Of a DNA stretch of 64,000 nucleotides, positions 8,866 through 38,153 are shown piece after piece; the first letter of the stretch is position 1; each line of letters starts with the position of its first letter. Origin of the DNA: Acidobacteriota bacterium (GTDB lineage: Bacteria; Acidobacteriota; Aminicenantia; Aminicenantales; Saccharicenantaceae); assembly GCA_022711665.1 (NCBI GenBank), contig JAKLEN010000005.1, forward strand, positions 130,619 through 194,618, given 5' to 3'. The position numbers and the translations under genes are program-made. The notes under the pieces are model-generated. The model was not told the DNA's origin. It saw only the letters and a program-made list of their open reading frames with translations, and did not search any database.

Positions 8866-8897
8866 TCTTCACCTCCTCGGGGCCGGATTCACGATGG

Positions 8898-9049: not shown

Positions 9050-11677
<2,628 letters not shown>

Positions 11678-11705
11678 CGCTTGGATCGCACCCGTCAAGG
11701 AGGGG

Positions 11706-12077: not shown

Positions 12078-12112
12078 GGCGGGGCCGGCCCCGGGGAGAC
12101 GGCCGCTCCGGG

Positions 12113-12364: not shown

Positions 12365-12560
12365 CTCGCACCTTCCTTCGTTTGTTCCGCTTCGCCTTTC
12401 CGCCCCCCATGCTAGGGTCGGGCGGACTAGCCCTCAATCGCCGCGGGGGGTGATAGGCGGGGGGATATTCGGCTCCGGGTGAGGTGGGGAACCCGGCCCC
12501 CTCTTTTTCCTTTGCCCCCGGCGGCGCGCTGAGCATATAATCGCCGGACGGAGGTTCACC

Positions 12561-14687: not shown

Positions 14688-14768
14688 ACGGCCCGAAACC
14701 GGGACCGAAACCGGGGCCGGGGACACGCGCGAACGTGCCCCCGGTCAGGCCGGCGCGGGGACGCGATC

Positions 14769-15398: not shown

Positions 15399-15711
15399 GG
15401 CTCGTATGCCCCTGCCAGAAGAACTATCACCGGGCGGCGGGGAGTGTCAATGATGCGGGCGCGCGAACCGCAACCTGGGGACACATATCAACGTGCCGCC
15501 AAACCGTGCGCCCGGCCGTCCTCGGCCTGAAGGCGGAAGGGGTCACGGATTTCTTAGAATATTTTTCGGTCGCCGCGAATTTCGACCGCTCTAGCCTGTC
15601 TTTACCATATGAAGCCTGTAGTTTACTCCGGATCAGGTTGTCTGGGAGAGATGCAGAAAACCCAGGTCAACGCCTGTTTACCTGACTTGATGACAGCAGT
15701 TGTCTTATTTC

Positions 15712-15740
15712 TTGACATTTGTCTAACTTTGGGTTTAATT
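15712..15740 (+). promoter_or_regulatory. Candidate promoter (TTGACA-17-TTAATT) with GACA..TGTC palindromic half-sites upstream of the HTH-ImmA regulator gene
   Basis: AT-rich 377-nt intergenic region. Hexamers and two GACA/TGTC inverted motifs (around 15692-15706 and 15714-15723) read from the sequence. Confidence 0.35.
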
Positions 15741-15775
15741 TCCATCGCATCGAGTTTCATGGGGATTTTTAGGGA

Positions 15776-18502: not shown

Positions 18503-18516
18503 GAACGGAGACAGGA

Positions 18517-22348: not shown

Positions 22349-24419
22349 ACGGGTAATAGTTCAGTTCCATCAGCAAATCGAGAGTGAAATCACAGAATCC
22401 ACACGGCAGGAGGGCGGCTTTGGCTCGGGTGAGTTCCGTGAGAACGTGCTGACGAGTATTTATGCGGAAGAGCTCTCGGCTGCGGGCGTGCTTGAATCGC
22501 CGGAAGTATGTCATTTGGAGGGCGGTAAAGGCAATGCATCTATTAAGGTGAATGGGTATGGGGTTCCGGAAGAGGATTCGCGGATAGACCTATTTATTAC
22601 GCTTCATTATGGCCCTTCGGATGAGATTGTCACTATAAATGCAGCGGAAGTCGAAACGGCGTTTAAAAAATTAGAACGTTTCTTTGGAAAGAGCCTAGAC
22701 GGCCTGTATAAAGAGCTGGATCCGGCTGGCGATCAATACTTGATGGCGGAGCATATCCAAGGGCTAAAGGCCAAAATGGACCGAGTCTGTTTCTATTTAT
22801 TTACTAATGCCAGACTGGCACAGAGAAAGGAAAAAGAACATAAGTCCGATATCTTTGGGCTTGAAGCTGTTTATGAAGTATGGGACCTGGAGAGATTTCG
22901 CCGCCTGAGAGAAAGTGGAACCAGCTATGAGGCATTGGTGGTCAACCTCGAAGATCAGAAGCTGGGAGGTCTTCCGTGCGTTCTCTTAGGAACAAATGGA
23001 GGCAATTCCCAAACTTGCGTGACTTTGTTCCCTGGGGAACTGCTTTGTGAACTCTATGATGAGTACGGGCCACGCCTGCTTGAACTGAATGTAAGGTCAT
23101 ACCTACAGGCGCGAGGCAAAGTAAACAAAGGAATAATGGAGACCCTCCAGAAAAGTCCACAAGATTTTTTAGCTTATAATAACGGGATAACGGTCGTTGC
23201 CGAAGAGATCATATTCGGAAAACTTTCTAATGGTTCACTGGGAATATTAGAGCTTCGTGGAATGCAAATCGTAAATGGAGGCCAGACAACCGCATCGATA
23301 CATAGGGCAGCAAAGGACTTCGGGGCTGACCTTTCGTGCGTAAGTGTGCAGGGGAAAGTGACGGTCGTTGACGGGGCCCGTTTTCAAGATATAGTGCCCT
23401 TAATATCACGATTTTCAAATACCCAAAATCGCGTAACAGAAGCTGACCTGAGCGCTAACCATCCTTTCCATATCGGGATGGAAAGAGTTTCTAGGCGGGA
23501 ATGGACGCCCGACCAACGCAGTATGTGGTTCTATGAACGCGCACGCGGAAGCTATCAGACGGCGAAGATCCGTGAAGGCAACACTCCTTCGAAAAGGAAG
23601 GCTTTTGAAGATAGGTACCCCAGTAACCAGCGGTTTTCGAAAGAAGATTTGGCCAGATTCGAAAACACTTGGCTTGGTTTGCCCCATATTGTTAGTCGTG
23701 GAAGTCAAAAGAACTTTGTCCACTTCATGCATGAGCTGGGGCAATACGACGAAGGTTGGGAGCCAGATATGGATCAGTATCGGCAGTATGTTGCGAAGGG
23801 GTTACTTTTCAAAGAAGCTCAAAGGGTAATTCGGGCAGATAGGAGGATAACAGCATATCAGATTAATGTAGCGGCCTATACCGTTGCCCTTCTAGCCGAA
23901 AAAACAGCCCGCCGACTAGACCTAAAACGTATATGGCGAATGCAGAAGGTTTCTGAAGCGACGTCAGAACTGCTGGCGGCTTGGGTGCCAATAGTATTTA
24001 AACACCTTCCTGATTATGCAGCAAAGGTGGGGAAACACATTGGTGAGTCCTTCAAGGCGTCCGCATGCTGGGATAATATCCGAGGGTTGGATCTGGTTGT
24101 GCCGAAAACTATTGATAAAGAACTCGTGGATGTCCCTGCAGGGGAAGACGAATTATCCGCAGCCAGGCGGCGTGATAGCAGGAAGCTGTCTTCAAATGAC
24201 AAGAATAACATAGCACGGTGCATGGAACTTGGGCAGAAAGAATGGCTGGCGATAGCTCTTTGGGGCCAGAAAACTAACATTCTTGCGGATTGGCAAAGGG
24301 GAATTGCCCGTACTCTTTCCGGATATGCTGCCGAAAAATGGGTAAAAAGGCCAAGCTCCAAACAGGCCTATCATGGTGTTCACATGATCGAAAGTGCACG
24401 AACGGCGGGTATCTTATAA
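22338..24419 (+). CDS. AIPR-family protein (abortive infection phage resistance family)
   Basis: N-terminal region with the GEFRENVLTSIYAEELSAAGVLE..RIDLFITLHY pattern typical of AIPR proteins. GTG start overlaps the previous stop by 11 nt. Size (693 aa) fits the family. Confidence 0.7.
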   Translation: MDNERVIVQFHQQIESEITESTRQEGGFGSGEFRENVLTSIYAEELSAAGVLESPEVCHLEGGKGNASIKVNGYGVPEEDSRIDLFITLHYGPSDEIVTINAAEVETAFKKLERFFGKSLDGLYKELDPAGDQYLMAEHIQGLKAKMDRVCFYLFTNARLAQRKEKEHKSDIFGLEAVYEVWDLERFRRLRESGTSYEALVVNLEDQKLGGLPCVLLGTNGGNSQTCVTLFPGELLCELYDEYGPRLLELNVRSYLQARGKVNKGIMETLQKSPQDFLAYNNGITVVAEEIIFGKLSNGSLGILELRGMQIVNGGQTTASIHRAAKDFGADLSCVSVQGKVTVVDGARFQDIVPLISRFSNTQNRVTEADLSANHPFHIGMERVSRREWTPDQRSMWFYERARGSYQTAKIREGNTPSKRKAFEDRYPSNQRFSKEDLARFENTWLGLPHIVSRGSQKNFVHFMHELGQYDEGWEPDMDQYRQYVAKGLLFKEAQRVIRADRRITAYQINVAAYTVALLAEKTARRLDLKRIWRMQKVSEATSELLAAWVPIVFKHLPDYAAKVGKHIGESFKASACWDNIRGLDLVVPKTIDKELVDVPAGEDELSAARRRDSRKLSSNDKNNIARCMELGQKEWLAIALWGQKTNILADWQRGIARTLSGYAAEKWVKRPSSKQAYHGVHMIESARTAGIL

Positions 24420-24422
24420 GCT

Positions 24423-25979
24423 ATGACGATTACAAAGTACCCCATTCCCGTTATTGATCTATTTGCCGGTCCAGGGGGACTTAGTGAGGGATTCTCTTCC
24501 TATGAGGAAGGATCTACTTTTTGTGTACGGCTTTCAATTGAAAAGGACAGATTCGCTCATCGGACTCTTGAGTTGCGGGCATTCTTTCGTAGTTTCGACG
24601 AAGATCCTCCCTCTGAATATTATAATTACCTTAAACATCAAATTAGTCGCGAAGAGCTATTCAAGATGTTTCCGACGCAAGCCAATAAGGCCAGGAACCA
24701 AGCTTGGCAGGCTGAACTAGGGAACAGGAAATATCCCAAAGCTCAGGTAGATAAGAAGATCAGGACTGCTCTGGGAAGACATGGTGACCGCTGGGTTCTT
24801 ATCGGAGGTCCTCCCTGCCAAGCTTATTCACTCATCGGCCGCTCTCGGATAAAGGGAAAGAGTATTAAGGATTATGAATCCGATAATCGCCATTTTTTAT
24901 ATCGCCAATATTTGAAGATATTGGCTGAACATAAGCCTCCTGTATTTGTAATGGAAAACGTAAAGGGATTATTATCCACGGAAATTAACGACCAGAGGAT
25001 TGTCGAACATATCCTCCGCGATTTACGGAACCCTAGTCAAGCAGTACGGAATAGTTCAAAGCATAATGGTGCCGAATATGTACTTCATTGTTTAGCGCCG
25101 ACAAAGAAGCAATACACAGAACTGACTCCTGAGGACTTTATCGTAAAGTCTGAGGCATATGGAATACCGCAAACGCGTCACAGGATCATTTTACTGGGAA
25201 TCCGAGCCGACGTACGCGTAAAACCAAAACACTTGATACCACAAGAAAGCACATTGTCGGTCGAACAAGCGATTGGAGATGTTCCGCCCGTAAGGAGCGG
25301 CATATCAAGAATGATTGATTCTTATGAACGATGGCTAGCGGTGGTTCGTAGCATTACTCGCTCTGAATGGCTAAAGGAGGGGGCTGTTACGAAAGAGATT
25401 CGTGGCGCTATAAAAGCCGTAGCAGAAAGCCAAAATCTGGCTTTTTCTCGGGGGGGGGAGTTCGTGAAAACTGTAGCTGCCCCCCAAATAATGGCGGAAT
25501 GGTTTAGGGATACCAGACTGCGCGGCGTATGTAACCATAGCACTCGCAGACATATGGAGAGTGATTTGCATCGGTATTTATTCGCTTCAGCATATGCGCA
25601 AGTTAATGGACATTCCCCACGACTGATTGATTTTCCGAAGGGATTGTTGCCAGATCATGCCAATGTCGGAGATGCGATCCGCGACCGGAAGTTCGGGGAT
25701 CGTTTTCATGTCCAAGTATCAAACCGTCCTGCATCCACGGTCACGGCCCATATATGCAAAGACGGTCACTATTTTATTCATTATGATTCAAAACAATGTC
25801 GTAGTCTTACGGTTCGTGAAGTAGCACGTCTGCAGACATTCCCAGATAATTATTTCTTTGAAGGGCCGAGGACTGAACAATATAGACAGGTCGGAAATGC
25901 GGTACCGCCGTTATTAGCTATTCAAATTGCCGATATTGTTGCGGGGATTTTTTATCAGGCTGGCAACCAAAAGGCATAA
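24423..25979 (+). CDS. DNA (cytosine-5)-methyltransferase, Dcm-type
   Basis: Motif I DLFAGPGG, motif IV GGPPCQAYS, motif VI ENVKGL, motif X VGNAVPP. Starts 3 nt after the AIPR stop. Confidence 0.95.
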   Translation: MTITKYPIPVIDLFAGPGGLSEGFSSYEEGSTFCVRLSIEKDRFAHRTLELRAFFRSFDEDPPSEYYNYLKHQISREELFKMFPTQANKARNQAWQAELGNRKYPKAQVDKKIRTALGRHGDRWVLIGGPPCQAYSLIGRSRIKGKSIKDYESDNRHFLYRQYLKILAEHKPPVFVMENVKGLLSTEINDQRIVEHILRDLRNPSQAVRNSSKHNGAEYVLHCLAPTKKQYTELTPEDFIVKSEAYGIPQTRHRIILLGIRADVRVKPKHLIPQESTLSVEQAIGDVPPVRSGISRMIDSYERWLAVVRSITRSEWLKEGAVTKEIRGAIKAVAESQNLAFSRGGEFVKTVAAPQIMAEWFRDTRLRGVCNHSTRRHMESDLHRYLFASAYAQVNGHSPRLIDFPKGLLPDHANVGDAIRDRKFGDRFHVQVSNRPASTVTAHICKDGHYFIHYDSKQCRSLTVREVARLQTFPDNYFFEGPRTEQYRQVGNAVPPLLAIQIADIVAGIFYQAGNQKA

Positions 25980-26066: not shown

Positions 26067-26513
26067 TTAGCCGGGACACCTATCGGCTTCCTTTTTAATA
26101 TTAGGTTTTCGCCGGACTAACTGAAGAAGCCGTATTTTCCATTCGGGATTTTCCACCTCGCATTCCCATATTGTGAAATAAGTCCATCCCAATACTTGTA
26201 CCTTCTGGGCAATCTCAATATCCCGCCTTTGATTCTCAACGAATTTCTTTTTCCAAAAATCAGTTCTTGACTTTGGCATGTATGCATACTTACATGATTT
26301 ATGCCGATGCCAGTAACATCCATGAACGAATATTGCAATCTTGTATTTTGGAAGTAAGATATCGGGGGATCCCGGCAAGATACCGGGAGTCAAAGAAAAA
26401 CGAAATCCCATGTGATGTAGCTGCGAACGAGTTCGGATTTCGGGCATAGTATTTCGTGACCTAATCCTTGACATATTCCAACTGCGCTTTGCCGGGGGAA
26501 TTCGGTCAGTCAT
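26067..26513 (-). CDS. vsr: Very-short-patch-repair endonuclease
   Basis: FVHGCYWHRH and TxPExRxxL motifs. 148 aa. Convergent with the methyltransferase gene. Confidence 0.95.
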   Translation of the reverse strand: MTDRIPPAKRSWNMSRIRSRNTMPEIRTRSQLHHMGFRFSLTPGILPGSPDILLPKYKIAIFVHGCYWHRHKSCKYAYMPKSRTDFWKKKFVENQRRDIEIAQKVQVLGWTYFTIWECEVENPEWKIRLLQLVRRKPNIKKEADRCPG

Positions 26514-26965: not shown

Positions 26966-27409
26966 ATGAGGGTCCGGACGACCGGCGCGGAGTTCGCCGA
27001 ATCGGACTTCATCATCACCGACCCCGCCCGTGGCGTCCTCGGCCTTGAGGTCAAGGGCGGCCTCCTCGACAAGAAGGACGGCGCCTGGCGGCAGAACGGC
27101 CAGGCCATGAGATCCTTGCCGCTCGACCAGGCGCACCGCTTCATCATGTTACTCCTGGCCAAGTTCAGGGAAAAGGATCGTATCTCGCCGCCGATCGGCG
27201 TGGCCGCCGCCTTCCCGGACACAGATTTTGAAATCCCGGCCTCCCAGGGCGACCTTGTCGCTGATGTCGCGCCCGGGACCGGCCGGTATGCGGTGCGGAT
27301 GAACATCACCGTCAGCCGGGCTTGCGGCGCCCTACGGATCGTCATTTCCCGCAGCGAGCTCGATAAGGACCCGATCCTGAAGCGCCTCGCCGAGGACGGA
27401 AGGAGATAG
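26966..27409 (+). CDS. NERD-domain protein (PD-(D/E)XK-like nuclease-related domain)
   Basis: DFIITDP...GVLGLEVKGG core. Intermediate GC. The upstream frame is closed by TAA at ~26864, so 26966 is the only ATG start. Confidence 0.5.
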   Translation: MRVRTTGAEFAESDFIITDPARGVLGLEVKGGLLDKKDGAWRQNGQAMRSLPLDQAHRFIMLLLAKFREKDRISPPIGVAAAFPDTDFEIPASQGDLVADVAPGTGRYAVRMNITVSRACGALRIVISRSELDKDPILKRLAEDGRR

Positions 27410-28357
27410 GTGCCGATGGCATTTGATCGTGTTCATGACGCCCGCATCAGGGCCGCGGCCTTCGAGTGGCTGACGGATCAGGTTCTGCGGCATGGAGACG
27501 TGCTGCCCCGCAGCCTCCTGGTCCAGGGATTCTATTTCGGGGACTCGAGGGTTCCGCTGGTCGGCCCGCAGGGGATCTTCAAGCCTCGCATCCTCGAGCT
27601 GCCGCTGTCGATTACGACGGCGCCGGAAGGCCCCTATAACGATGCCTTCGGCCCGGATAAATTGCTGCGCTACCGTTACCGGGGGACCGACCCGGACCAT
27701 AGAGACAATCGGGGGCTGCGGGAGGCCATGGCGAACCGGTTGCCGCTGGCTTATTTCCATGGGATCGCGCCCGGACGATATATGGCGGCTTGGCCTGTCT
27801 TCATAGTCGGCGACCATCCTGATCCATTCTCGCCGTCGTTCTCGGTAGCTGTCGATGACAAGGGGCATTTGGGTGTCGTCGCCGAGGACCGAAATGAGCG
27901 TGGCGCCGTGGGCGAGGAAGGCGATACCGCCCGGCGGCAATACATAACGTCCACCGTTCGGGTCCGGCTCCACCAAAGAGCCTTCAGGGAGCGCGTGCTC
28001 GAGGCCTATCGCCGGCAATGCGCGTTCTGCCGGCTCAGGCATGAGGAGCTGCTCGACGCCGCCCACATCATTCCGGACGCGAGCCCGGAAGGCGAGCCCG
28101 TGGTCCAGAACGGGCTGGCGCTGTGCAATCTCCATCATGCGGCGTTCGACAAGTTCTTTATCGGGGTGCGGCCTGACTACGTCATCGAGATCCGCCCGGA
28201 TATCCTGAGAGAGGGGGACGGTCCAACGTTGAGGCACGCGATCCAGGGGCTGAACGGGACGAGCATCCTGGTGCCCGAGCGGCTGAGTCTAAGGCCGGAT
28301 CAAGCGCTCCTTTCGAAGCGTTATGAGCGGTATCGCGAGGCCGCCCGGGAATACTAG
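27410..28357 (+). CDS. HNH endonuclease, COG3440/HNH_2-like (candidate modification-dependent type IV restriction enzyme) with uncharacterised N-terminal domain
   Basis: C-terminal CAFCRL...LDAAHIIP...NGLALCNLHHAAFD HNH signature. ~200-aa N-terminal domain (GIFKP...YRYRGTDPDHRDNRGL). The likely ATG is at 27416, preceded by GGAAGGAGA. Confidence 0.75.
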   Translation: MPMAFDRVHDARIRAAAFEWLTDQVLRHGDVLPRSLLVQGFYFGDSRVPLVGPQGIFKPRILELPLSITTAPEGPYNDAFGPDKLLRYRYRGTDPDHRDNRGLREAMANRLPLAYFHGIAPGRYMAAWPVFIVGDHPDPFSPSFSVAVDDKGHLGVVAEDRNERGAVGEEGDTARRQYITSTVRVRLHQRAFRERVLEAYRRQCAFCRLRHEELLDAAHIIPDASPEGEPVVQNGLALCNLHHAAFDKFFIGVRPDYVIEIRPDILREGDGPTLRHAIQGLNGTSILVPERLSLRPDQALLSKRYERYREAAREY

Positions 28358-28442: not shown

Positions 28443-28943
28443 CTAGGCCCGAAGCAGGGCCGAGTAGATGGCGTGGTCGGCGGCCGAGAAGCAGCAGAAT
28501 GTCACTTCGATCCCGCAAGCCGGGTGCCCGTCGAGGAATTCCCGTACGGCCTTGACCGCGACCGCGGCCGCGAGCTCTATGGGATAGCCGTAGACGCCGG
28601 TGCTGATCGAGGGGAAGGCGATCGACCGTACGCCGTTCTCAAGAGCAACTTCGAGCGACTTGAGATAGCAGCCGCGGAGGAGTGCAGGCTCGTTCGCGCG
28701 GCCGCCCCGCCAGACGGGCCCGACCGTGTGGATGACGAACCTGGCCGGGAGCCTGTAGCCCTTCGTGATCTTGGCCTCGCCGGTCGCGCATCCTCCGAGG
28801 GTGCGGCATTCGGCGAGTAGCTCGCGTCCCGCGGCGCGGTGGATGGCCCCGTCGACGCCGCCTCCGCCGAGGAGCGAGGCATTCGCGGCGTTGACGATCG
28901 CGTCGACCTCGAGGGTCGTGATGTCGGCGACGACGGCTTTCAT
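28443..28943 (-). CDS. Macro-domain protein (YmdB-like O-acetyl-ADP-ribose deacetylase / ADP-ribose hydrolase)
   Basis: [23 protein letters not shown] and [15 protein letters not shown] motifs. 166 aa. Confidence 0.85.
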
Positions 28944-29089: not shown

Positions 29090-29118
29090 TTGACAGCAAG
29101 ACGCTATAACGCTATGAT
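29090..29118 (+). promoter_or_regulatory. Sigma70-type promoter of the TA operon (TTGACA-17-TATGAT) with ACGCTAT direct repeats overlapping the spacer/-10
   Basis: Hexamers and the repeated ACGCTAT(A/G) read from the sequence. GGGAGGG RBS before the ATG at 29136. Confidence 0.5.
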
Positions 29119-29135: not shown

Positions 29136-29369
29136 ATGACTGGTTCAAACAAGCGCGTGACGATCTATCTCAAGCCGGAGTTCCATAGGGCGCTGAAGGT
29201 CAAGGCCGCGGAAACCGAGTATTCCATCTCCGACCTGGTCAATTCGGCCGTCAAGCGGGCGCTCCTCGAGGACGCCGTCGATCTCGAGGCCTTCGAAAAG
29301 CGGGCTGGAGAGCCGCTGCTTGCCTTCGAGGACGTCGTCAGGGACCTCAAGCGCCATGGAAAGCTATAG
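29136..29369 (+). CDS. Type II antitoxin (RHH/CopG-like fold predicted)
   Basis: 77-aa acidic protein immediately upstream of, and overlapping, a ParE/RelE toxin gene. The N-terminal KRVTIYLKPEFHRALKVKAAE pattern fits a ribbon-helix-helix antitoxin. Confidence 0.55.
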   Translation: MTGSNKRVTIYLKPEFHRALKVKAAETEYSISDLVNSAVKRALLEDAVDLEAFEKRAGEPLLAFEDVVRDLKRHGKL

Positions 29370-29616
29370 GGTCCTTGTCCGGAGGTCCGCGGCCGGAGAG
29401 TTGGCGGACATCCCGAAAAAGGACCTGGCCCGCGTCGTCGCCAGGATCGGCAAGCTGGCCTTGCAGCCGAGGCCCGACGGATGCGAGAAGCTCTCCGGGC
29501 AGGAGAGATACCGGGTCAGGCAGGGGGACTATCGAGTCGTCTACTCGATCGATGACGAGAACCGGGTCGTCGAGATCGTCAAGATCGGCCGCCGCAGCGA
29601 GATCTATCGGCGATAA
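29356..29616 (+). CDS. ParE/RelE-family toxin
   Basis: YRVVYSIDDENRVVEIVKIGRRSEIY C-terminal signature. ATG overlaps the antitoxin stop. Confidence 0.75.
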   Translation: MESYRVLVRRSAAGELADIPKKDLARVVARIGKLALQPRPDGCEKLSGQERYRVRQGDYRVVYSIDDENRVVEIVKIGRRSEIYRR

Positions 29617-29629: not shown

Positions 29630-31357
29630 TCATCCGATCTCGAGGATGCGGTCGAGGCGGAAGGTGCGGCACTCGCCGCGGCTGTGGCAGAAGGCGCGCA
29701 GGCCCTCGAAGGTCCGGCCGTGGTACTCCATCATCTCCACTGATTCGGGCCGGATGCGGCGGCGTGACTTCTTGTCGTCGGGCTTGAGGTAGACGATCTC
29801 GAGCTCGCGGCCGTCGCGGATGGCCTCGAGGAGGAGAGCGCGCTTGTCGGCCGGGGGCAGGGCCTGCTCGGCCTTCTTGTACTGGAAGCGGGTCAGGAAG
29901 CGGACGATGCGCCAGTCCATCAGGATGTGAGCGCGGCGGATGGGCGTCCGCAGGACCAGGCCCTCGAACGAGGTGCAGCGGCTCAGGGCGACGTAGACCT
30001 GGCCGTGGGCGAAGGCGCCGCGGCCGATGTCGACGACCACGCGCTCGAAGGTCTTGCCCTGGCTCTTGTGGATGGTCACGGCCCAGGCCAGGCGCAGCGG
30101 GTACTGGGTGAAGGCGCCGACGGCCTCGGAGTCGATGCGGTCCTCCTCGGCGTCATACTGGAAGCGGAAGAGCTCCCAGGTGTTGGGCCCGACGTCGACC
30201 TCGGCGCCGCCGGCGAGCTCGACCGTGACGATGTCGTCGGCGTCGATGTCCTCCGACTTGCGGATGCGGGCGACGCGGCCGATCGTGCCGTTGACCCAGC
30301 GGCCCTTGCGGTCGTTGGTCAGGAGCATGACCTGGGCGCCGGGCTTGAGCTCGAGGGCCTCCTCGGTCGGCAGGGAGCGGCGGTCGAACTCGCCGTCGAC
30401 GAGGCCCTCGTAGCGGCGGGCGTGGCCGCTCAGGGCGGCCAGCTTCTCGCGGTTGCGGGCGGCAGCCAGGTCGTTGGTGCTGGTCAGGGTGATGTAGAAC
30501 CGGTCGTCGGGCGGGACGAAGGCGGAATCGAGGCGGCTGTTGAGAAGGGCGATCTGGGCGTCGTCGATCGAGCGGTTGCGGATGGCGTTGAGCAGGCCGA
30601 TGAAAGCGGCGTCGTTCTGGCGGTAGACTTTCTCCAGCTCGACGAAGTCCATGTCGAAGCCGGGCTCGGCGAAGACGCGGGCCGAGAAAAAGTAGGGCGA
30701 CTCGTAGCGGGGGGCGGAAGCGCCGGACGTCAGGACGGCGGCGGGGGAGGGGCCGGCGTTCCCGGCGCCCCAGCGGCGGAGCGAGACCGGGTCGGGAGCG
30801 AAGAGGCCGCGCTCCTGGCCGGTGACCACGGGCGGCAGCTGGTAGAGGTCGCCGATGAAGATCATCTGCAGGCCGCCGAAGCGCTCCTTGGGGCGCGGGC
30901 CGTTGAGGCGCAGGAACTTCTCGACGCAGTCCATCAGGTCGGCCCGGACCATCGAGACCTCGTCGATGACGATGGCGTCGAGGTTGCGGTACAGGGCGAC
31001 CCGGTCGGCGGCGGCACCGCGGCCCTTGGAAAGCTTGCGCACCGACTCGGGCGTGACGTCGGGCTTGAAGCCGAAGAACGAGTGGATGGTCTGGCCGCGG
31101 ACGTTGAGGGCGGCGACACCGGTCGGGGCCAGGACGGCGATCTTCTTGAGCGTCTGGTTGCGCCAGAGCTCCAGGAGGGTCGATTTCCCGGTGCCGGCCT
31201 TGCCGGTGATGAAGACGTGGCGCGAGGTGCCCTCCATGATATCGAGTGCCCGCCGGAAACCGGGATTGATCTCGATGGCCGGCGCCTTGCCCGGCGTCCG
31301 GCCCGGAGACCGGTCCGGCTCGTCCGGTTTCGGTTTGCGAGCGCTTTTCCTGGTCAT
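29630..31357 (-). CDS. Pif1/RecD-like SF1 helicase fused to C-terminal WYL domain
   Basis: Walker A GKAGTGKST, Walker B IVIDEVSMV, the Pif1 signature LYQLPPVV, and VYVALSRCTSFEGL. The C-terminus ends ...GECRTFRLDRILEIG (WYL-type). Internal ATG (MTRKSARK) chosen as start. Confidence 0.8.
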   Translation of the reverse strand: MTRKSARKPKPDEPDRSPGRTPGKAPAIEINPGFRRALDIMEGTSRHVFITGKAGTGKSTLLELWRNQTLKKIAVLAPTGVAALNVRGQTIHSFFGFKPDVTPESVRKLSKGRGAAADRVALYRNLDAIVIDEVSMVRADLMDCVEKFLRLNGPRPKERFGGLQMIFIGDLYQLPPVVTGQERGLFAPDPVSLRRWGAGNAGPSPAAVLTSGASAPRYESPYFFSARVFAEPGFDMDFVELEKVYRQNDAAFIGLLNAIRNRSIDDAQIALLNSRLDSAFVPPDDRFYITLTSTNDLAAARNREKLAALSGHARRYEGLVDGEFDRRSLPTEEALELKPGAQVMLLTNDRKGRWVNGTIGRVARIRKSEDIDADDIVTVELAGGAEVDVGPNTWELFRFQYDAEEDRIDSEAVGAFTQYPLRLAWAVTIHKSQGKTFERVVVDIGRGAFAHGQVYVALSRCTSFEGLVLRTPIRRAHILMDWRIVRFLTRFQYKKAEQALPPADKRALLLEAIRDGRELEIVYLKPDDKKSRRRIRPESVEMMEYHGRTFEGLRAFCHSRGECRTFRLDRILEIG

Positions 31358-31542
31358 CCCGGGGATTTTCTCCCAAATCAGACGCCGACGCAATCGGTCC
31401 GTTCGTCGGCGCATCGCTTCCGCCGTTCTAGAGGACGATCCGGAGGAGGCGCTTTTCTCACGCCGGCGCCGGGCTTGCGCCAAGTCCGTCCGGTTATGTA
31501 TACTTCCCGTCAATCATCTTCCTTGACGGCACGGGGGCGGAC

Positions 31543-33027
31543 ATGGCGGGATCCATCATCGTCATCGGCGCCGGCGTGGGCGGGCTGGCGGCGGGCATCT
31601 ACGGCCGGATGAACGGCTTCGACACCAAGATCTTTGAGATGAACGCCGTGCCGGGCGGGCAGTGCTGCGCCTGGAAACGGGGCGGCTACACGTTCGACGG
31701 CTGCATCCACCACCTGTTCGGGTGCGCGCCGGGCTCGCGGCTATACGGCCTGTGGCAGGAGCTGGGGGCCATGCCGCGGGCGATGGTCCAGCCCGAGGAG
31801 TGCACCAGCGTCCTGGCGCCGGACGGGCGGCTGTTCCGCGATTATTACGACCTCGACCGGCTGCGGGCCCACATGACGGAGCTGGCGCCGGGCGATGCCG
31901 CGGCCATCGACGAGTACGTTCGGGGCTGCCGGGCCTTTGTCGGCGCGGATCGTCTCGGCGAGATGATGCTCGGGACGGGGGCGGGACGGGCCAGGGCCCT
32001 GGTCGGGATGGCGGCGCGGCTGAAATGGCTGACGCCAACGATGGAAAAATTCGGCCGGCGGTTCAAGGACCTGTTCCTGAAGCGGGCCGTGCCTCAGCTC
32101 GTCTATTCGAATCCCGCGGCGCCGCTCTTCGTGCATCTCGTTCGTCACGGCTATGGCGCGGCAGGATCTCTCCAGTGGCCGAGCGGCGGGACGCTGCCGT
32201 TCGCGCTGTCGATCGCGCGGCGTTACAAGGAGCTGGGCGGCGAGATCGCGTACAGCAGTCGGGTCGAGAGGATCCTGACCGAGAACGGGCGGGCGGTCGG
32301 GGTCCGGCTGGCCGACGGCGGTGAGCACCGGGCCGACGTCGTCATCTCGGACGCGGACGGCCGCAAGACCATCATGGACATGCTCGAGGGACGGTTCGTC
32401 GACGACGGGGTGCGACGGGCCTGCGGCGAGCCGCCGGAAACGACGGCTTGGTCGGTCCACGTCTATCTGGGCGTCAAGCGCGATCTGACGGGCGAGCCGT
32501 CGGCCATGATCATGCTGCTCGACGAGCCGGTCGAGATCGCCGGGCACCGCTGCGAGACCCTGGAGATGCAGATCTACGGCTTCGACCGGACGATGGCGCC
32601 GGCGGGGAAGAGCGTCATCAAGGCCGAGCTCTTCTCGGACTACTCGTACTGGAAGCGCCTGGCCGGGGATCGGGCCCGATACGAAGAAGAGAAGGCCCGG
32701 GCGGCCGACCGGACGATCGACGTGCTCGAGCGGCGTTGGCCCGGGCTGCGGGCGCAGGTCGAGACGATCGACGTGCCGACGCAGCTGACTTGGGAGCGGT
32801 ATATGGGCGGGACGCACGGGTTCGCCAATATGCCTGCCAAGAAAGCTTCGCTCTGGTCCGGATTGAAGGGGGCCGGCGGGGACATGACCCTGCCCGGGCT
32901 CGACCGGTTCTATTTCGTGGGGGTGTGGGCCAGCATGTCCGGGTCGCTGTTCGGCAACGCGCTGTCGGGGCGCCGGGCCATCCAGGAGCTCTGCCGGCGG
33001 CTGAAGCGGCCCTTTATCATTACTTGA
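31543..33027 (+). CDS. FAD/NAD(P)-dependent oxidoreductase, phytoene desaturase (CrtI)-like family
   Basis: N-terminal dinucleotide-binding IIVIGAGVGGLAAG motif and CrtI-like length. Confidence 0.75.
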   Translation: MAGSIIVIGAGVGGLAAGIYGRMNGFDTKIFEMNAVPGGQCCAWKRGGYTFDGCIHHLFGCAPGSRLYGLWQELGAMPRAMVQPEECTSVLAPDGRLFRDYYDLDRLRAHMTELAPGDAAAIDEYVRGCRAFVGADRLGEMMLGTGAGRARALVGMAARLKWLTPTMEKFGRRFKDLFLKRAVPQLVYSNPAAPLFVHLVRHGYGAAGSLQWPSGGTLPFALSIARRYKELGGEIAYSSRVERILTENGRAVGVRLADGGEHRADVVISDADGRKTIMDMLEGRFVDDGVRRACGEPPETTAWSVHVYLGVKRDLTGEPSAMIMLLDEPVEIAGHRCETLEMQIYGFDRTMAPAGKSVIKAELFSDYSYWKRLAGDRARYEEEKARAADRTIDVLERRWPGLRAQVETIDVPTQLTWERYMGGTHGFANMPAKKASLWSGLKGAGGDMTLPGLDRFYFVGVWASMSGSLFGNALSGRRAIQELCRRLKRPFIIT

Positions 33028-33040: not shown

Positions 33041-33616
33041 TCAGTAATGCTTCTGGATGCCGCCGAACCCTACGATCCGGTTGGCCCTGGTCGCGCGTAG
33101 GAAGCTGCGGAGGCGCTTGGCGAATTCCTCCGGCCGGCCGCGGGCGGCGTCGATATAGCCGATGCGGATGCGTTTGTAGGAGCCGGAGAAGGCCCGGTAG
33201 TTCTTCCAAGTCGCCGGGTCGGCCTTCAGGGCGGCCAGGATGTCCGGCGGAACGACGAGAGGCTTCTCGACGAGCAACGGGCGGACCTTTTCCAGGACCT
33301 CCGGGACGACCTTGCCTCCGGCCGCCATGGCCCGGAGCCGGACCAGGTTGGCCTCTGAGTAGGGGCTCTTCGGCTGGCGCGGCGTGAACCGTTGGGCGAA
33401 GCGGCCCTCGTCGATCCTCTTGGCCGTGCTGTCGATCCAGCCGAAGGCCAGGGCCTCTTCGACGGCATCGTTGTAAGCGACACGCGGCAGGCCGGAGCTC
33501 TTTTTGGCGAAGACGAGCCAGACCTCGTTGGACGTCTTGTAGTGCCGGCGCAGCCAGGCCCGCCACTCCGAGCGTTTGGAGACGTTCAGCAGTCGAGTCG
33601 GGTCGATCGCCGGCAT
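33041..33616 (-). CDS. YdeI/OmpD-associated family protein (DUF1801-like)
   Basis: WLVFAKKSSGLP...EEALAFGWIDS pattern. Start taken at the internal ATG (MPAIDPTRL). Confidence 0.55.
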   Translation of the reverse strand: MPAIDPTRLLNVSKRSEWRAWLRRHYKTSNEVWLVFAKKSSGLPRVAYNDAVEEALAFGWIDSTAKRIDEGRFAQRFTPRQPKSPYSEANLVRLRAMAAGGKVVPEVLEKVRPLLVEKPLVVPPDILAALKADPATWKNYRAFSGSYKRIRIGYIDAARGRPEEFAKRLRSFLRATRANRIVGFGGIQKHY

Positions 33617-33632
33617 CGCGGGCTCGCGGCTC

Positions 33633-36600
33633 TTACTTGATCTCCTTGAGGAGCTCGGTGACGGCGGCTTCAAGCTGCTCGTCGCGGCCCTTGGCCACCC
33701 GCTCAAAGGTGTTCATGACCTTGACGTCGGGCTCCGTCTGGTGGTTGTCGAGGTAGCCGATGCCCTCCACCTTGACGCCCATCGGAACGACGCCCCAGCG
33801 CACGCCGCTCGCGCCCAGCATCTCCCAGCCGGCGAACGAGCAGGTGCCCGGCACGGGCATGCCGACGAGCTTGCCCAGCTTGAGGTACTGGTAGGCGAAG
33901 GCATAGCAGTGGCCGTCGCTGTACTGGGCTTCGCCGACGATCGAGATCGACGGCTTGGTCCAGCGGAAATTCGGCTCGTAGCCGGTGCTGCGCTTGTCGC
34001 TGGTGTAATCGAAGAACTTCTTGCCGCTCAGGAACATGGCCAGGTCGGCCACCAGGTCCCCGCCGCCGTTGAAGCGGGTGTCCACGACGAGCGCCTCCTT
34101 GTTGGCGAACTTGCCCATGACCTCCTCGAAGGCCGAGCGGTAGGCGCTGTCGCTCATGCCCGGCACATGGATGTAGCCGAGGCGCCCGCCGCCGAGCTTC
34201 TCGACCTCGGCCTGGTTCCGCAGGACCCAGCGTCGGTAGAGAAGATTGCTCTCCTCGCGCGGCGAGATGGGCTTGACCGTGATTTCGCGCCGGAGGGGCG
34301 CCGCGCTTTTAACCGCGCCTTTGGCCGCCGCCGGCGCCGCCGGAGCCGTGAGCGTCAGCAGGACGTTCTGCCCGGCCCGGCGGTTGAGGTAGCGCTCGAT
34401 GTCCTTGTCGGGCGCGATGGTCTCGCCGTCCACCGCCTCGATGACGGTCCCGGGCGCGATATCGAAGCCGGCCTTGTCGAGCGGCCCGCCGGCCATGACC
34501 TCGACGACCTTGACGCCGGGGCCGGCGTAGGCCGGGTCGTAGAAGGCGCCGAGCGAGGCCGTCTCGTCGGCGTTCTCCATCTGCCGGCCGTAGCGCGCCC
34601 CACTGTGGCTGACGTTGAGCTCGCCCAGCATCTCCGACAGGAGCTCGGCCATGTCGTAGCCGTCGCTGATGCCGCTCAGGTGCTTCTCGTAGACGGGCTT
34701 GAGGGAATCCCAATCGGCCCCGTGATACCCGGCCGTATAGAACGTCTCCAGCACCTGGCGCCAGACGTGCTCGAACTGCGCCCGGCGCTCGGCGGCCGCG
34801 TCGACCGTCATCTCGCCCTTGATCCGGACGGGCTCGCGCTTGCCGCTGGCCGGGTCAACCTTGGCCACGGCTCCGTCGGCCAGGAGGAAGATCGACTTCT
34901 GGTCCTTGTCCCAGACCAGGCGCCCGCCGTTGGCGTCGAGGCCGGCCAGCATCCGGGTCTCGCGCGTCTTGAGGTTGGTCGTCCACAGGTTCAGGCCCTT
35001 TTCGAAGCGGGCCAGGTAATAGAGGGTGTCGCCGTCCTTGTTGACCAGGGCGTCGCCCAGCGACGAAGAGTGCAGGGTCAGCCGCGACTTGCGCAGAGCC
35101 AGGTCGGTCCAGTCGATGACCAGCGGCTTGACCTCGTCCTTCTTCTCCTTGTCCGCCGCCGCCTTGTCCTTGGGCGCCTCGGGCTTGGTCTTTTTCTCCT
35201 CGATGTCCTTGAGCAGGGCGGCCTCCTCCTTGGTCAGGCGGAAGCGGTCCCAGGCCTCGCGGGTGAAGAACAGGGCGTAAGCGTCGTACTGCGCGGCGCC
35301 GCTCTGGGCCACGGACTTCAGGCCGTCGCGGTTGCTGAACCAGAGCATGCCCTGGCCGCCGAGGATCCACTTGGCCTGGCGGTCCTCGAAGCCGCTCTCG
35401 GTCAGGTTGACGATCTTGCCCGAGCCGTCGGCCTTGACCAGGCCGATCTCGGCGGGGGCGAAGCCGGGGACGGAGTAGTCGAAGAGGATCCACTGGCCGT
35501 CCGGGCTCCACTGGTAGTATTGGCTGCCGCCGGCCGACGGGGCCAGCTGGCGGTCGGTCAGGAGCGTCAGCGCCTGCTTGGTGGCCAGGTCGAGGACCTT
35601 GAGGGTGGCGCGGTCCTCGACGAAGGCCAGCTTCTTGCCGTCGGGTGAATAGGCCGGCTGGGTGTTCTGGCGGGCATTGACGACGAGCGGCGTCTCCTTG
35701 AGCAGGGTCGAGGCGTAGAAGTAGGGCTCTTCGGTCCGGGCCCGGCGGGTCTCGTAAACGCCCCAATGGCCGTCGCGCTCCGAGGCGTAGACGATGGCGT
35801 TGCCGTCGGGGGAGAAGGAGACGGCGGTCTCGTCGCCGAAGGACGAAGTGACCCGCTTGGTCAGGCCGCCGTCGACGCCGGCGGCGAAGATGCCGCCGCG
35901 GGAGACGACCGCGATCTCCTTGCCGCCGGGCGATACGGCGAACTCCCGGACCTCGCCGCCGGCCGGGACGACGATCTCGTTGTTGGCCCGGGCGTCGGAG
36001 GCGATGAGGATCGGGACGCGGACGGGCGCGGCCGTGTCGCCGCGCTGGGTGTAGACGGCGCCGTCGTAGCCGAAGCAGAGCGTGCCGTCGTCGGCGCGCG
36101 ACAGGAAGCGGACCGGGTTCTTGGCGAACTTCGTGATCTGGGTCGAGGCGCCGCCTTCCGCCGCCAGGCGGTGGACGTTGAACGTGCCGCTCTCCTCGCT
36201 CAGGTAGTAGAAGCCCTTCTCGTCGGAGGTGAAAACGGGGCTCCGGTCCTCGCCGGCGAACCCGGTGATCCTGCGGTGCTGGCCGGTCTGGGTGTCGTAG
36301 GCCCAGATGTCGCGGGCGATGGCCGAGACGTGGTGCTTGCGCCACTCGTTCTCGCCGCCCTTTTTATCGTGGTAGAGGAGGAGACGGCCGTCGCGGCTGA
36401 GCTTGGCGTCCTCGGCCGGCGTGCCGAGGATCTGGACGGCGCGGCCTCCGGCGGCCGGGACCTTGTAGAGCTCGGGCTGCGAGCCGGCCGGGAAGGTCCG
36501 GTTGTCGGCCGCGTCGAGGCGGGCGGCGCCGAAGAGGACGGCTTGGTCGCCAGGCGTGAACGAATAGGGGATCTCGGAAGCCGAATGGTAGGTCAGGCGG

Positions 36601-36983
36601 CGGGCCTCGCCACCGGCCGCGGGCATGATGAAGACGTCGAAGTTGCCGTAGCGGTCGCTGGCGAAGGCGATGGACTTGCCGTCGCGGCTCCAGACGGGGT
36701 TGGTGTCGTGGGCCTCATGCAGCGTCAGCGGGACGGCCGCGCCGCCGTCGGCGGGGACGCGGTAGATGTCGCCCTTGTAGACGAAGGCGATGGCCGCGCC
36801 GTCGGGCGAGATGGCCGGGTAACGCAGCCACGTGGGAAGATTGTCGGCGGCCGGGCCGGCGGCCTGGAGGGCCGGCAGCGGGCCGGGGACGAGGACAGCC
36901 GCGGGATCGGCCGCGGCGATCGTGGCGAGGCCGAGAACGGCCAGGATGGGAACGAGGGCGAGGCTGGCTTTCTGACGCTTCAT
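33633..36983 (-). CDS. Tricorn protease homologue (beta-propellers + PDZ + S41 peptidase domain), secreted
   Basis: 1116-aa product starting MKRQKASLAL with signal peptide. TAAGGAGA RBS. WD40/Tol-like propeller repeats, a PDZ segment and a C-terminal S41-like domain. The track ORF 33633..38042 is a read-through artefact upstream of this start. Confidence 0.8.
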   Translation of the reverse strand: MKRQKASLALVPILAVLGLATIAAADPAAVLVPGPLPALQAAGPAADNLPTWLRYPAISPDGAAIAFVYKGDIYRVPADGGAAVPLTLHEAHDTNPVWSRDGKSIAFASDRYGNFDVFIMPAAGGEARRLTYHSASEIPYSFTPGDQAVLFGAARLDAADNRTFPAGSQPELYKVPAAGGRAVQILGTPAEDAKLSRDGRLLLYHDKKGGENEWRKHHVSAIARDIWAYDTQTGQHRRITGFAGEDRSPVFTSDEKGFYYLSEESGTFNVHRLAAEGGASTQITKFAKNPVRFLSRADDGTLCFGYDGAVYTQRGDTAAPVRVPILIASDARANNEIVVPAGGEVREFAVSPGGKEIAVVSRGGIFAAGVDGGLTKRVTSSFGDETAVSFSPDGNAIVYASERDGHWGVYETRRARTEEPYFYASTLLKETPLVVNARQNTQPAYSPDGKKLAFVEDRATLKVLDLATKQALTLLTDRQLAPSAGGSQYYQWSPDGQWILFDYSVPGFAPAEIGLVKADGSGKIVNLTESGFEDRQAKWILGGQGMLWFSNRDGLKSVAQSGAAQYDAYALFFTREAWDRFRLTKEEAALLKDIEEKKTKPEAPKDKAAADKEKKDEVKPLVIDWTDLALRKSRLTLHSSSLGDALVNKDGDTLYYLARFEKGLNLWTTNLKTRETRMLAGLDANGGRLVWDKDQKSIFLLADGAVAKVDPASGKREPVRIKGEMTVDAAAERRAQFEHVWRQVLETFYTAGYHGADWDSLKPVYEKHLSGISDGYDMAELLSEMLGELNVSHSGARYGRQMENADETASLGAFYDPAYAGPGVKVVEVMAGGPLDKAGFDIAPGTVIEAVDGETIAPDKDIERYLNRRAGQNVLLTLTAPAAPAAAKGAVKSAAPLRREITVKPISPREESNLLYRRWVLRNQAEVEKLGGGRLGYIHVPGMSDSAYRSAFEEVMGKFANKEALVVDTRFNGGGDLVADLAMFLSGKKFFDYTSDKRSTGYEPNFRWTKPSISIVGEAQYSDGHCYAFAYQYLKLGKLVGMPVPGTCSFAGWEMLGASGVRWGVVPMGVKVEGIGYLDNHQTEPDVKVMNTFERVAKGRDEQLEAAVTELLKEIK

Positions 36984-37024
36984 CGGGGTCTCCTTAATAT
37001 TGGCCTTCCAGATGGCGATGATAC

Positions 37025-38014: not shown

Positions 38015-38153
38015 GGCAACCTCCGGTTATGGGTCCGCTCATTCTAACCGAAACGGCTGGATATGGCCACCGCTATCGTTTCGCGGCCCGGCCGCCTCGC
38101 GAGGGAAGGGATTGTGATCGATCTCCGGGAACGCCTGCGGGGGCTGGGGCCTG

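Follow-up and report, generated by a model that had tools for sequence, protein, structure and literature searches.

A Pif1-family helicase with a C-terminal WYL domain near a low-GC Mza block in an Aminicenantes bacterium, probably a chromosomal gene outside the defence island

The window (the whole 64,000-nucleotide stretch of DNA analysed here) carries on its minus strand a gene for a 575-amino-acid Pif1-WYL helicase at 29630-31357, with its stop codon at 29630-29632 and an ATG start at 31357, as taken from the open reading frame list and checked by translation. The gene and its features were mapped as follows, in the direction of translation:

29630..31357, minus strand: Pif1-WYL helicase gene (ORF list; Pfam PIF1, AAA_30, UvrD_C_2 and WYL; homologue starts)
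31358..31513, minus strand: putative N-terminal extension of 52 codons, starting at TTG 31513, with no conserved counterpart
31280..31357, minus strand: basic proline-rich N-terminal tail (MTRKSARKPKPDEPDRSPGRTPGKAP), weakly conserved (sequence; alignment of 40 orthologues; pLDDT about 34)
29882..31279, minus strand: SF1B Pif1 core, domains 1A/1B/2A and a putative 2B, plus UvrD_C_2 region (PDB sequence alignment, Foldseek)
31178..31204, minus strand: motif I / Walker A GKAGTGKST (GKAGTGKS at 31181-31204), invariant in 40 orthologues
30950..30964, minus strand: motif II / Walker B DEVSM, with D132 and E133 (ATG-start numbering) invariant in 40 orthologues
30866..30880, minus strand: …RFGGLQ, closing the Pif1 signature motif that lies between motif II and motif III, with F160, G161 and G162 (ATG-start numbering) invariant
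30824..30853, minus strand: motif III GDLYQLPPVV, invariant in 40 orthologues
30710..30796, minus strand: hypervariable low-complexity loop of 29 amino acids, PDPVSLRRWGAGNAGPSPAAVLTSGASAP, after motif III (alignment break; pLDDT below 50)
30056..30076, minus strand: motif V TIHKSQG, invariant in 40 orthologues
29978..29995, minus strand: motif VI YVALSR, invariant in 40 orthologues
29837..29881, minus strand: helicase-WYL linker (gap-free alignment to the Pif1 helicases SsPif1 and DdPif1; helical in the model)
29636..29836, minus strand: WYL domain, residues 560-626 (508-574 in ATG-start numbering) (PF13280, model, superposition)

Two candidate starts were available for this reading frame, a TTG at 31513 that would yield 627 amino acids and the ATG at 31357 that yields 575. 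The 52 codons upstream of the ATG had no conserved match before any orthologue, only 14 of the 120 listed homologue sequences extended into the aligned region upstream of M53, and a start at TTG 31513 would place the divergent oxidase gene only 29 bp away. The extension is probably not translated, and the 627-residue frame was dropped in favour of ATG 31357, where 80 of the 120 listed homologues begin in the alignment (query M53) and where an earlier interpretation made from the letters alone (hereafter the sequence-only reading) had also placed the start. Residue numbers nevertheless follow the TTG-start form (627 residues, with the ATG as M53) unless stated otherwise, the ATG-start form being 575 residues long. 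A search of the gene's surroundings for promoters and terminators returned no promoter-like site for the helicase, and the sites that it found were the neighbouring parD and Macro genes' own.

Pfam analysis of the protein showed a PIF1 match (PF05970) at residues 93-235 with 86.4 bits against a cut-off of 25.9 (E 2.7e-24), together with matches to AAA_30 (E 3e-12) and, at residues 467-525, to UvrD_C_2 and Herpes_Helicase. The core aligned with the Pif1 chains 8bns, 8bnv, 5ftb, 6s3e, 5o6b and 5fhh, and all of the best 18 matches in a PDB sequence search, as well as all of the best 38 Foldseek matches, were Pif1 helicases. Judged from these matches the protein is a Pif1-family SF1B helicase. NCBIfam returned no family at or above its cut-off, and identities as RecD2 (69.7 bits against a cut-off of 500) or RecD (59.9 bits against 310) were rejected, with both Pfam and PDB pointing to Pif1.

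SF1 motifs I, II, III, V and VI are all intact. The sequence-only reading had called a Pif1 helicase, and this call was upheld by the above-cut-off PF05970 score and by the presence of GKAGTGKS, DEVSM and GDLYQLPPVV, although the last of these, which it had named the Pif1 signature, is motif III. The actual signature segment, DCVEKFLRLNGPRPKERFGGLQ, aligned with PFGGIQ in SsPif1 and PFGGTK in DdPif1, and its proline is replaced by arginine in this helicase and by tryptophan in the orthologue consensus. The 29-residue loop after motif III (residues 240-268) is absent from both SsPif1 and DdPif1, where the alignment breaks at 239/269; it differs in length and sequence among close homologues and is missing in more distant ones, making it a lineage-specific feature. 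The N-terminal tail is weakly conserved, with no majority residue at the first 13 consensus positions of the 40-orthologue alignment. In the 2B region the profile matches were weak (Pif1_2B_dom at 18.0 bits against a cut-off of 23.9, and SH3_13), but residues 269-544 aligned continuously with Pif1 chains, the model being of low confidence there. The full-length AlphaFold2 model built with 40 orthologues was poor overall (mean pLDDT 50.7, pTM 0.35) and only its WYL part was usable.

The WYL assignment made in the sequence-only reading was borne out by the profile search, in which PF13280 scored 41.6 bits against a cut-off of 21.8 (E 1.3e-10), rising to 46.4 bits when the tail was scanned alone, and the C-terminal string that it had quoted, ...ECRTFRLDRILEIG, does end the protein. 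The PIF1 and WYL scores both lie far beyond chance expectation. PADLOC WYL profiles likewise matched the tail (E 7.9e-9), and the domain stops one residue short of the C-terminus. Modelled residues 500-575 (ATG-start numbering) had a pLDDT of 84-94 and formed consecutive strands in a strand-rich barrel, which superposed on other WYL structures with an rmsd of 2.6-2.9 Å, including PafBC 6sj9 (2.9 Å over 78 columns) and BrxR 7t8k (2.7 Å over 73). The predicted basic channel comprises R585, C609, R612, R616, R619 and R622, all invariant in the 40 orthologues. A library-wide search with the linker and WYL domain (92 amino acids) recovered 195 clusters at 50% identity (E ≤ 1e-3), many of them fragments, so that this count is only a rough size of the family; full-length cluster members, with about 510-710 amino acids, have the size of a helicase and matched in or close to their C-terminal end.

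The helicase gene has a GC content of 0.692, the Mza block one of 0.461 and the remainder of the window one of 0.686. This low-GC block of Mza, Dcm and Vsr genes spans 9.9 kb, from about 16.9 to 26.7 kb, and profiles for MzaB, MzaC, MzaD and MzaE matched ORFs at 16973-24419 and not the helicase protein. The description of the helicase as lying at the island edge, given in the sequence-only reading, is only loosely true: the gene is near the block, but 2.9 kb separate it from the end of the block at about 26.75 kb, and four ORFs of host-like GC (a NERD fragment, HNH, Macro and ParD/ParE) lie between. Opposite-strand genes occur on both sides of the helicase gene, which therefore shares no operon with its neighbours. 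No tRNA gene was found in the window, nor any convincing flanking direct repeats around 14.5-29.7 kb. A G4-specific role was also considered and found no local support, as canonical G4 motifs were not enriched: the 53 kb of host-like sequence contain 5, whereas mononucleotide shuffles, a crude control, gave 18.6 ± 4.2.

Orthologues with 71-93% identity were found in 35 species-level Aminicenantes genomes. A Tricorn-type protease gene lies upstream at 20 of 39 orthologous loci and an OmdA gene at 15, and comparison by sequence of the same 39 loci revealed no Mza genes at any of them. In eight relatives with annotated neighbourhoods, the surrounding genes were for the most part ordinary ones of metabolism and the envelope, interspersed here and there with genes for toxin-antitoxin systems or nucleases. 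On the 3' side of the helicase gene, relatives repeatedly carried toxin-antitoxin, nuclease and helicase genes; this cargo was not the same in every genome, in contrast to the helicase and its 5' neighbours, which stayed constant. ParE was rejected as a fixed partner, with ParE-like matches downstream at only 4 of the 39 loci and at variable distances. More widely, the helicase has at least 8000 homologues, and all 120 of those listed carry both PIF1 and WYL. The Aminicenantes orthologues come from MAGs of peat-, lake- and permafrost-named sites, which are apparently non-thermal.

The location of the gene invites the reading that it is a defence-island component which senses nucleic acid or damage and assists or regulates the neighbouring Mza, HNH, Macro or ParDE modules, and the sequence-only reading had proposed a role of this kind. 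The 2.9-kb distance to the Mza, Dcm and Vsr block, with HNH, NERD, Macro and ParDE genes in between, is compatible with this, as are the toxin-antitoxin and nuclease cargo in the 3' flank of relatives and the fact that WYL domains regulate several defence systems, e.g. BrxR and CapW (PMC9122601, PMC9122588). PADLOC also gave partial matches, to WYL profiles and, with an E-value of 4.8e-21 for PDC-S68, to families of candidate helicases; these were dismissed as a sign of defence-system membership because they cover either the WYL domain alone or, with some 130 of over 1200 profile positions, just the generic ATPase part. The proposal was not supported by the comparison with relatives, where no Mza gene lies near any of the 39 orthologous loci and the adjoining cargo changes per genome, whereas the helicase and its 5' neighbours persist. 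Host GC is a property of the gene and not of the block (0.692 versus 0.461), and the opposite-strand flanks preclude co-transcription with the neighbours. No HTH family occurred among 18 Pfam matches at E up to 0.1, the N-terminus being occupied by the helicase core, and lacking an HTH domain the protein cannot act like BrxR or CapW. Because of its host GC, opposite-strand flanks, conserved synteny, absence of Mza genes at the 39 loci and lack of an HTH domain, the gene is to be regarded as a core helicase conserved outside island contexts, a finding that the sequence-only reading had itself named as refuting its proposal. A link of the helicase to the defence island was thus not supported, and we consider membership of the island very unlikely. 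A broader part in defence or in the handling of incoming DNA, for example with the WYL domain sensing ssDNA of phage or integration intermediates, was considered because toxin-antitoxin, nuclease and helicase cargo recurs on the 3' side of the gene across Aminicenantes, and it is likewise highly improbable.

Alternatively, the WYL domain may not passively grip ssDNA but control the helicase allosterically, as an on/off switch that senses a small molecule, for instance a cyclic or linear nucleotide signal. Binding of c-di-GMP by another WYL domain has been reported or proposed (PMC11880434), as have ssRNA for WYL1 and further ligands for regulators of the BrxR/CapW type, and the conserved basic channel would fit any anionic ligand. 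In the only Pif1-WYL enzyme tested (TePif1), however, ssDNA is bound by the WYL domain on its own, and less well when the channel is mutated (10.1101/163188); the same channel residues are conserved here, and the conserved neighbours include no nucleotide cyclase or other signal-generating gene, leaving a sensor function unlikely. A further alternative is an origin as a mobile-element helicase, that is a phage, plasmid, conjugative RecD/TraA-like or Helitron-like remnant of an integrated element. Phages commonly encode Pif1-like cores, with matches in 500 phage records, weak NCBIfam matches to RecD2, RecD and TraA were obtained, a Helitron transposase appeared among the PDB matches (7lcc, E 2.9e-11) and mobile-type genes lie nearby. 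The best phage and plasmid matches are, however, at most 44% identical, and as none goes beyond residue 515 of 575 (ATG-start numbering) they largely lack the WYL domain at 508-574. The NCBIfam scores fell 8-30 times below their cut-offs, Pfam detected no relaxase, Rep or integrase domain, and the conserved chromosomal synteny, the host-like composition and the lack of a tRNA gene in the window or of convincing repeats around 14.5-29.7 kb all argue against such an origin, so that a mobile-element source appears extremely unlikely.

In summary, we consider it likely that this gene encodes a chromosomal, vertically inherited Pif1-WYL SF1B helicase of an Aminicenantes bacterium, a reading that builds on the domain architecture, motif integrity, orthology, synteny and composition established above. 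As in its homologues, the polarity of the enzyme would be 5'→3', with two RecA-like domains hydrolysing ATP and translocating along ssDNA in this direction. The WYL barrel, carried on a short helical linker, would hold the 5' stretch of the same strand at the exit of the helicase channel through its row of arginines. Such a grip would strengthen ssDNA binding and couple the hydrolysis of ATP productively to the unwinding of DNA with a fork or a 5' tail, and both ssDNA binding by this WYL domain and the coupling are extrapolated from homologues. Its role in the cell is a matter of speculation; most likely it lies in the general maintenance of the genome, perhaps at replication forks as an accessory helicase, and not in phage defence. 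The helicase gene may further be read as a conserved boundary next to a variable stretch of chromosome that received foreign DNA, which would account for its proximity to the Mza/Dcm/Vsr block.

The gene should accordingly be annotated as a WYL-bearing Pif1 helicase and not be counted in the adjacent Mza defence island. Beyond correct annotation the significance of this is small; as the conserved edge of a variable region, the gene is nevertheless usable as an anchor for finding defence cargo in an uncultured lineage.

Comparison with other WYL proteins showed that BrxR, CapW, PafBC and DriD have the WYL fold in common with the helicase, and DriD binds ssDNA through the basic ligand channel of its WYL domain (PMC9964779). 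These are HTH-WYL(-WCX) regulators whose genes lie next to the system under their control, whereas the helicase has neither HTH nor WCX, carries its WYL domain fused to a motor and lacks a conserved defence neighbour. RecD2 and RecD belong to the same SF1B superfamily and polarity class, and matched only partially in NCBIfam. The WYL-less Pif1 helicases BsPif1 (Bacteroides sp., 5ftb/5fhd) and ToPif1 (Thermus oshimai, 6s3e) have the same type of SF1B core, with 1A/1B/2A/2B domains of which 2B is putative in the helicase (E about 1e-69 to 1e-71, identity 31-35%), but end after it without a WYL domain, and their alignments stop at query residue 542-544.

The nearest relatives with solved structures are SsPif1 (Sulfurihydrogenibium sp., 8bns; E 2.1e-168, core identity about 51%) and DdPif1 (Deferribacter desulfuricans, 8bnv/8bnx; E 4.5e-143, core identity about 44%), both of them colinear with the helicase (Rety et al. 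2023, PMC9964779). Contacts to ssDNA modelled for the DdPif1 WYL domain (PMC9964779) are conserved, with R464, R491, R495, R498 and R501 corresponding to R585, R612, R616, R619 and R622. One of two DC2 contacts, DdPif1 K413, is not kept and is W534 here; the helicase also differs from both relatives in its insertion at 240-268 and its longer N-terminus. Residues 79-626 aligned to the 517-residue 8bns and 510-residue 8bnv sequences with the 29-residue insertion as the sole break. The coordinates of 8bns and 8bnv comprise the core alone (chain lengths 381-433; constructs 1-433 and 1-438), and the WYL domains of these proteins are AlphaFold models. To our knowledge, no Pif1 helicase has an experimentally determined WYL structure, and the path of ssDNA across this domain is a model.

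The closest functional comparison is to TePif1 of Thermotoga elfii, which has the same Pif1 core, UvrD_C_2 region and C-terminal WYL domain, the latter serving as an accessory module that binds ssDNA and through which ATP hydrolysis is coupled to unwinding (Andis et al. 2018; 10.1101/163188). Deletion or mutation of the TePif1 WYL domain abolished high-affinity ssDNA binding, raised ATPase activity 3.5- to 5.7-fold and lowered unwinding efficiency 10- to 200-fold, and the isolated domain bound ssDNA but neither dsDNA nor tail-less G4 DNA (10.1101/163188). The TePif1-4x residues R470, C494, R501 and R504 would correspond to R585, C609, R616 and R619 here, by a constant six-residue offset via DdPif1. 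In comparison to TePif1, the helicase has an additional basic N-terminal tail and the 29-residue variable loop after motif III. The TePif1 host is a thermophile, whereas the lineage studied here is represented by Aminicenantes MAGs from sites named for peat, lakes or permafrost. The WYL extension has been suggested to be an adaptation to thermophily (PMC9964779), an idea that the abundance of the subfamily in apparently non-thermal Aminicenantes weakens. The alignments place the helicase in the Pif1-WYL subfamily of TePif1, DdPif1 and SsPif1; its combination of Pif1 core and C-terminal WYL domain is already known and biochemically characterised, and hence not new. By analogy with TePif1, the enzyme would be expected to display ssDNA-stimulated ATPase activity, unwinding of 5'-tailed or forked DNA and WYL-dependent high-affinity ssDNA binding.

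The helicase gene is read from the minus strand, with its stop codon at 29630–29632 (ORF list and translation), and has two possible starts, a TTG at 31513 giving 627 aa and an ATG at 31357 giving 575 aa. On the alignment, the ATG, which the sequence-only reading had also used, is the better start, because 80 of the 120 listed homologues begin at its Met and the 52 codons upstream have no conserved counterpart ahead of any orthologue. Residues are numbered from the TTG unless stated otherwise; ATG-start numbers are 52 lower.

Pfam domains of the helicase
Residues 93–235, PIF1 (86.4 bits, cut-off 25.9, E 2.7e-24)
AAA_30 (E 3e-12)
Residues 467–525, UvrD_C_2 / Herpes_Helicase
Residues 560–626, WYL (41.6 bits, cut-off 21.8; 46.4 bits with the tail scanned alone)

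The strings GKAGTGKS, GDLYQLPPVV and the C-terminal RTFRLDRILEIG were all found in the translation. With these strings present and both the PIF1 and WYL profiles above cut-off, the sequence-only reading, which had proposed a Pif1 helicase with a C-terminal WYL domain and a WYL profile search as its check, was borne out. Walker A, Walker B, motif III, motif V (TIHKSQG), motif VI (YVALSR) and the FGG of the Pif1 signature motif were invariant in an alignment of 40 orthologues (76–94% identity), and the helicase looks, as predicted from sequence, catalytically competent and under purifying selection. Two features are lineage-specific and probably disordered and unremarkable: a basic, Pro-rich tail made up of the 26 N-terminal residues, and a 29-residue loop rich in G, A, S and P that follows motif III (residues 240–268). 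The loop varies in length and sequence among close relatives and, in contrast to the query, is not found in the thermophile Pif1 enzymes.

Among PDB sequences, Sulfurihydrogenibium sp. Pif1 (517 aa; 8bns, E 2.1e-168) was the best match, followed by the 510-aa Pif1 of Deferribacter desulfuricans (DdPif1; 8bnv/8bnx, E 4.5e-143), and the 8bns and 8bnv sequences align with residues 79–626, covering helicase core, linker and WYL domain. Alignments to the following matches, the Bacteroides, Thermus oshimai, yeast, Candida and human Pif1 proteins, in contrast stop at residue 542–544 or before, because these proteins lack the WYL domain. NCBIfam scores for RecD2 (69.7 bits, cut-off 500) and RecD (59.9 bits, cut-off 310) were far under their cut-offs; a RecD/RecD2 identity was therefore rejected and the helicase assigned to Pif1.

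The window has a GC content of ~69% and contains a 9.9 kb block of ~46% GC at roughly 16.85–26.75 kb.

Genes of the low-GC block (PADLOC and Pfam)
16973–18502, plus strand, MzaB
18517–21333, plus strand, MzaC (Z1 domain)
21293–22348, plus strand, MzaD (DUF4420)
22338–24419, plus strand, MzaE (AIPR)
24423–25979, plus strand, C5 cytosine methyltransferase
26067–26513, minus strand, convergent Vsr endonuclease

This block encodes an apparently complete Mza-type defence system, and neither an integrase nor a tRNA gene nor a flanking repeat turned up. Four host-GC ORFs separate it from the helicase gene: a NERD fragment, an HNH_2 endonuclease, a Macro-domain protein and a ParD/ParE pair. The GC of the helicase gene is 0.692 versus 0.686 for the host, and its 3' end is convergent with parE and its 5' end divergent from a CrtI-family oxidase gene, so that it shares no operon with its neighbours; parD and the Macro gene each have their own promoter-like sites. 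Canonical G-quadruplex motifs in the host-GC parts of the window (1–16000 and 27001–64000) were fewer than in mononucleotide shuffles (5 vs 18.6 ± 4.2), despite the 69% GC.

A protein database search returned at least 8000 helicase homologues at E ≤ 1e-10; the 120 listed were 73–93% identical, 518–609 aa long and all carried PIF1 and WYL, those named coming from Aminicenantes or Acidobacteriota MAGs. Scanning a single genome for each species gave orthologues in 35 species-level genomes. Every window ORF was compared by tblastn with 39 orthologous loci.

Window ORFs matched in the 39 orthologous loci
33.6–38.0 kb, minus strand, Tricorn-type protease, 20 loci (18 at 74–82% identity, two weaker)
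33041–33706, minus strand, OmdA/YdeI, 15 loci
31543–33027, plus strand, CrtI-family oxidase, 7 loci
HNH endonuclease, 4 loci
NERD fragment, 4 loci
ParE, 4 loci
Macro, 1 locus
Mza-block ORFs, 0 loci

In the precomputed annotations of eight relatives, the genes surrounding the helicase are for the most part ordinary ones, encoding among others peptidases, LptD, glycosyltransferases and SAM synthetase; the neighbourhood is conserved on the 5' side and variable on the 3' side. In L003 (~90% identity), which is the closest of the large contigs, the 3' side carries a ParE fragment, Macro, NERD-helicase, UvrD-RNaseT, an HD protein, a Phd/PIN pair and GIY-YIG. The conserved 5' side, variable 3' side and lack of Mza matches therefore identify a chromosomal border gene: the helicase gene is vertically inherited and marks the fixed boundary of a variable region, with the Mza block as one lineage-specific cargo of that region.

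Phage and plasmid collections yielded Pif1 cores only; these are at most 44% identical, do not reach past residue 515 of 575 (ATG-start numbering) and are largely without WYL. Such matches argue against a mobile-element origin of the helicase, which is disfavoured. The earlier reading had also cast the gene as a possible accessory or regulator of neighbouring modules at an island edge. Its domain assignment stands and nucleic-acid engagement by the WYL domain is plausible, but the accessory or regulatory role is not supported, given the 0/39 loci with Mza ORFs, no shared operon, host-like GC and no HTH. BrxR/CapW-type WYL regulators are defined by an HTH domain, whereas Pfam finds none in this helicase. 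Conservation as a core helicase outside island contexts, which that reading had named as contrary to its proposal, is what the 35 genomes and the Mza-free loci display.

The 147-aa NERD ORF (26966–27409, plus strand) and 315-aa HNH_2 ORF (27410–28357, plus strand) share a reading frame and are parted by a single TAG (27407–27409). In L003, a 563-aa NERD-AAA_30 helicase has NERD at its N-terminus; by comparison the window copy appears cut short or rearranged, and the two ORFs may meet at a pseudogene junction or represent one fused gene interrupted by an in-frame stop. The HNH_2 protein matches PADLOC HNH profiles (E 1.5e-20), has a weak likeness to phosphorothioated-DNA-binding restriction endonucleases (NCBIfam NF045808, 57 bits, under the cut-off of 180) and may be a modification-dependent (type IV-like) nuclease. 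The Macro-domain O-acetyl-ADP-ribose deacetylase gene (28443–28943, minus strand; NF001664, 232.9 bits, above the cut-off of 200) adjoins genes for an RHH antitoxin (29136–29369, plus strand) and ParE toxin (29320–29616, plus strand), with strong divergent promoter-like sites between them (TTGACA-17-TATGAT, 29090–29118, plus strand; TTGACA-17-TAGAGT, 28998–28970, minus strand).

Some relatives carry a PD-(D/E)XK (PDDEXK_1) nuclease gene, absent from the window, immediately downstream of the Pif1-WYL gene (locus L042, 11488–12978, minus strand; locus L002, 14211–15434, minus strand); in L042 the nuclease and helicase genes are convergent, with an overlap of ~100 bp at the helicase 3' end. Beyond the Mza block, away from the helicase, are an HTH_3 + Peptidase_M78 (ImmA/IrrE-like) gene (15776–16834, plus strand) and a GIY-YIG gene (14769–15398, minus strand). 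The GIY-YIG gene reappears in L003 (88% identity) and locus L006 (71%), 7–10 kb downstream of the helicase gene, and may represent the opposite boundary of the variable region. The CrtI-family FAD oxidase / carotenoid-isomerase-like gene separates OmdA from the helicase gene and is encoded on the opposite strand; as it occurs at this place in only 7 of the 39 orthologous loci, it is a secondary insertion that interrupts an otherwise conserved Tricorn-OmdA-Pif1 gene order. The 1469-aa mechanical ORF of the Tricorn region (33633–38042, minus strand) is over-extended; the real product is a ~1100-aa Tricorn-type protease that probably starts at an internal signal-peptide-like MKRQKASLALV..., and its orthologues have PD40, Tricorn and Peptidase_S41 domains.

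Full-length AlphaFold2 modelling of the helicase gave a poor result (mean pLDDT 50.7). The last 75 residues were strand-rich and confident at pLDDT 84–94, and Foldseek superposed this segment on WYL domains from PafBC (6sj9, rmsd 2.9 Å over 78 columns) and BrxR (7t8k, 2.7 Å over 73 columns). The 8bns and 8bnv sequence records are full length (517 and 510 aa, WYL included) while the coordinate chains hold just 381–433 residues, the crystallised constructs being core only, so a match to these entries does not equal a Pif1 WYL structure, of which there is no experimental example. The DdPif1 contacts named by Rety et al. (PMC9964779), of which those in the WYL domain are modelled ssDNA contacts, fall, in gap-free alignment blocks with the PDB sequence, on R235 (K151), W534/R535 (K413/K414) and R585, R612, R616, R619 and R622 (R464, R491, R495, R498 and R501), and these five WYL arginines together with C609 are invariant among the 40 orthologues. 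Through a constant 6-residue offset, R470, C494, R501 and R504 of Thermotoga elfii Pif1 (TePif1) would equal R585, C609, R616 and R619. Deletion of the TePif1 WYL domain or mutation of these residues abolished high-affinity ssDNA binding, raised ATPase 3.5- to 5.7-fold and increased the protein concentration required for unwinding 10- to 200-fold, and the isolated domain bound ssDNA but neither dsDNA nor tail-less G4 (Andis et al., 10.1101/163188). This biochemistry and the matching conserved residues favour, as the best-supported mechanism by homology, a 5'→3' motor whose WYL barrel would grip the trailing 5' ssDNA and couple ATP hydrolysis to unwinding.

Orthologue-bearing MAGs are titled after a peat bog, lake sediment and water column, and a permafrost-associated site, all probably not hot. 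This is at odds with the proposal in PMC9964779 that the WYL extension of Pif1 is an adaptation to thermophily. A WYL-bearing Pif1 in seemingly non-hot habitats is a small remaining point of interest, as the Pif1-WYL fusion itself is already described, biochemically characterised and partly solved structurally, and the present helicase is an uncharacterised orthologue of it.
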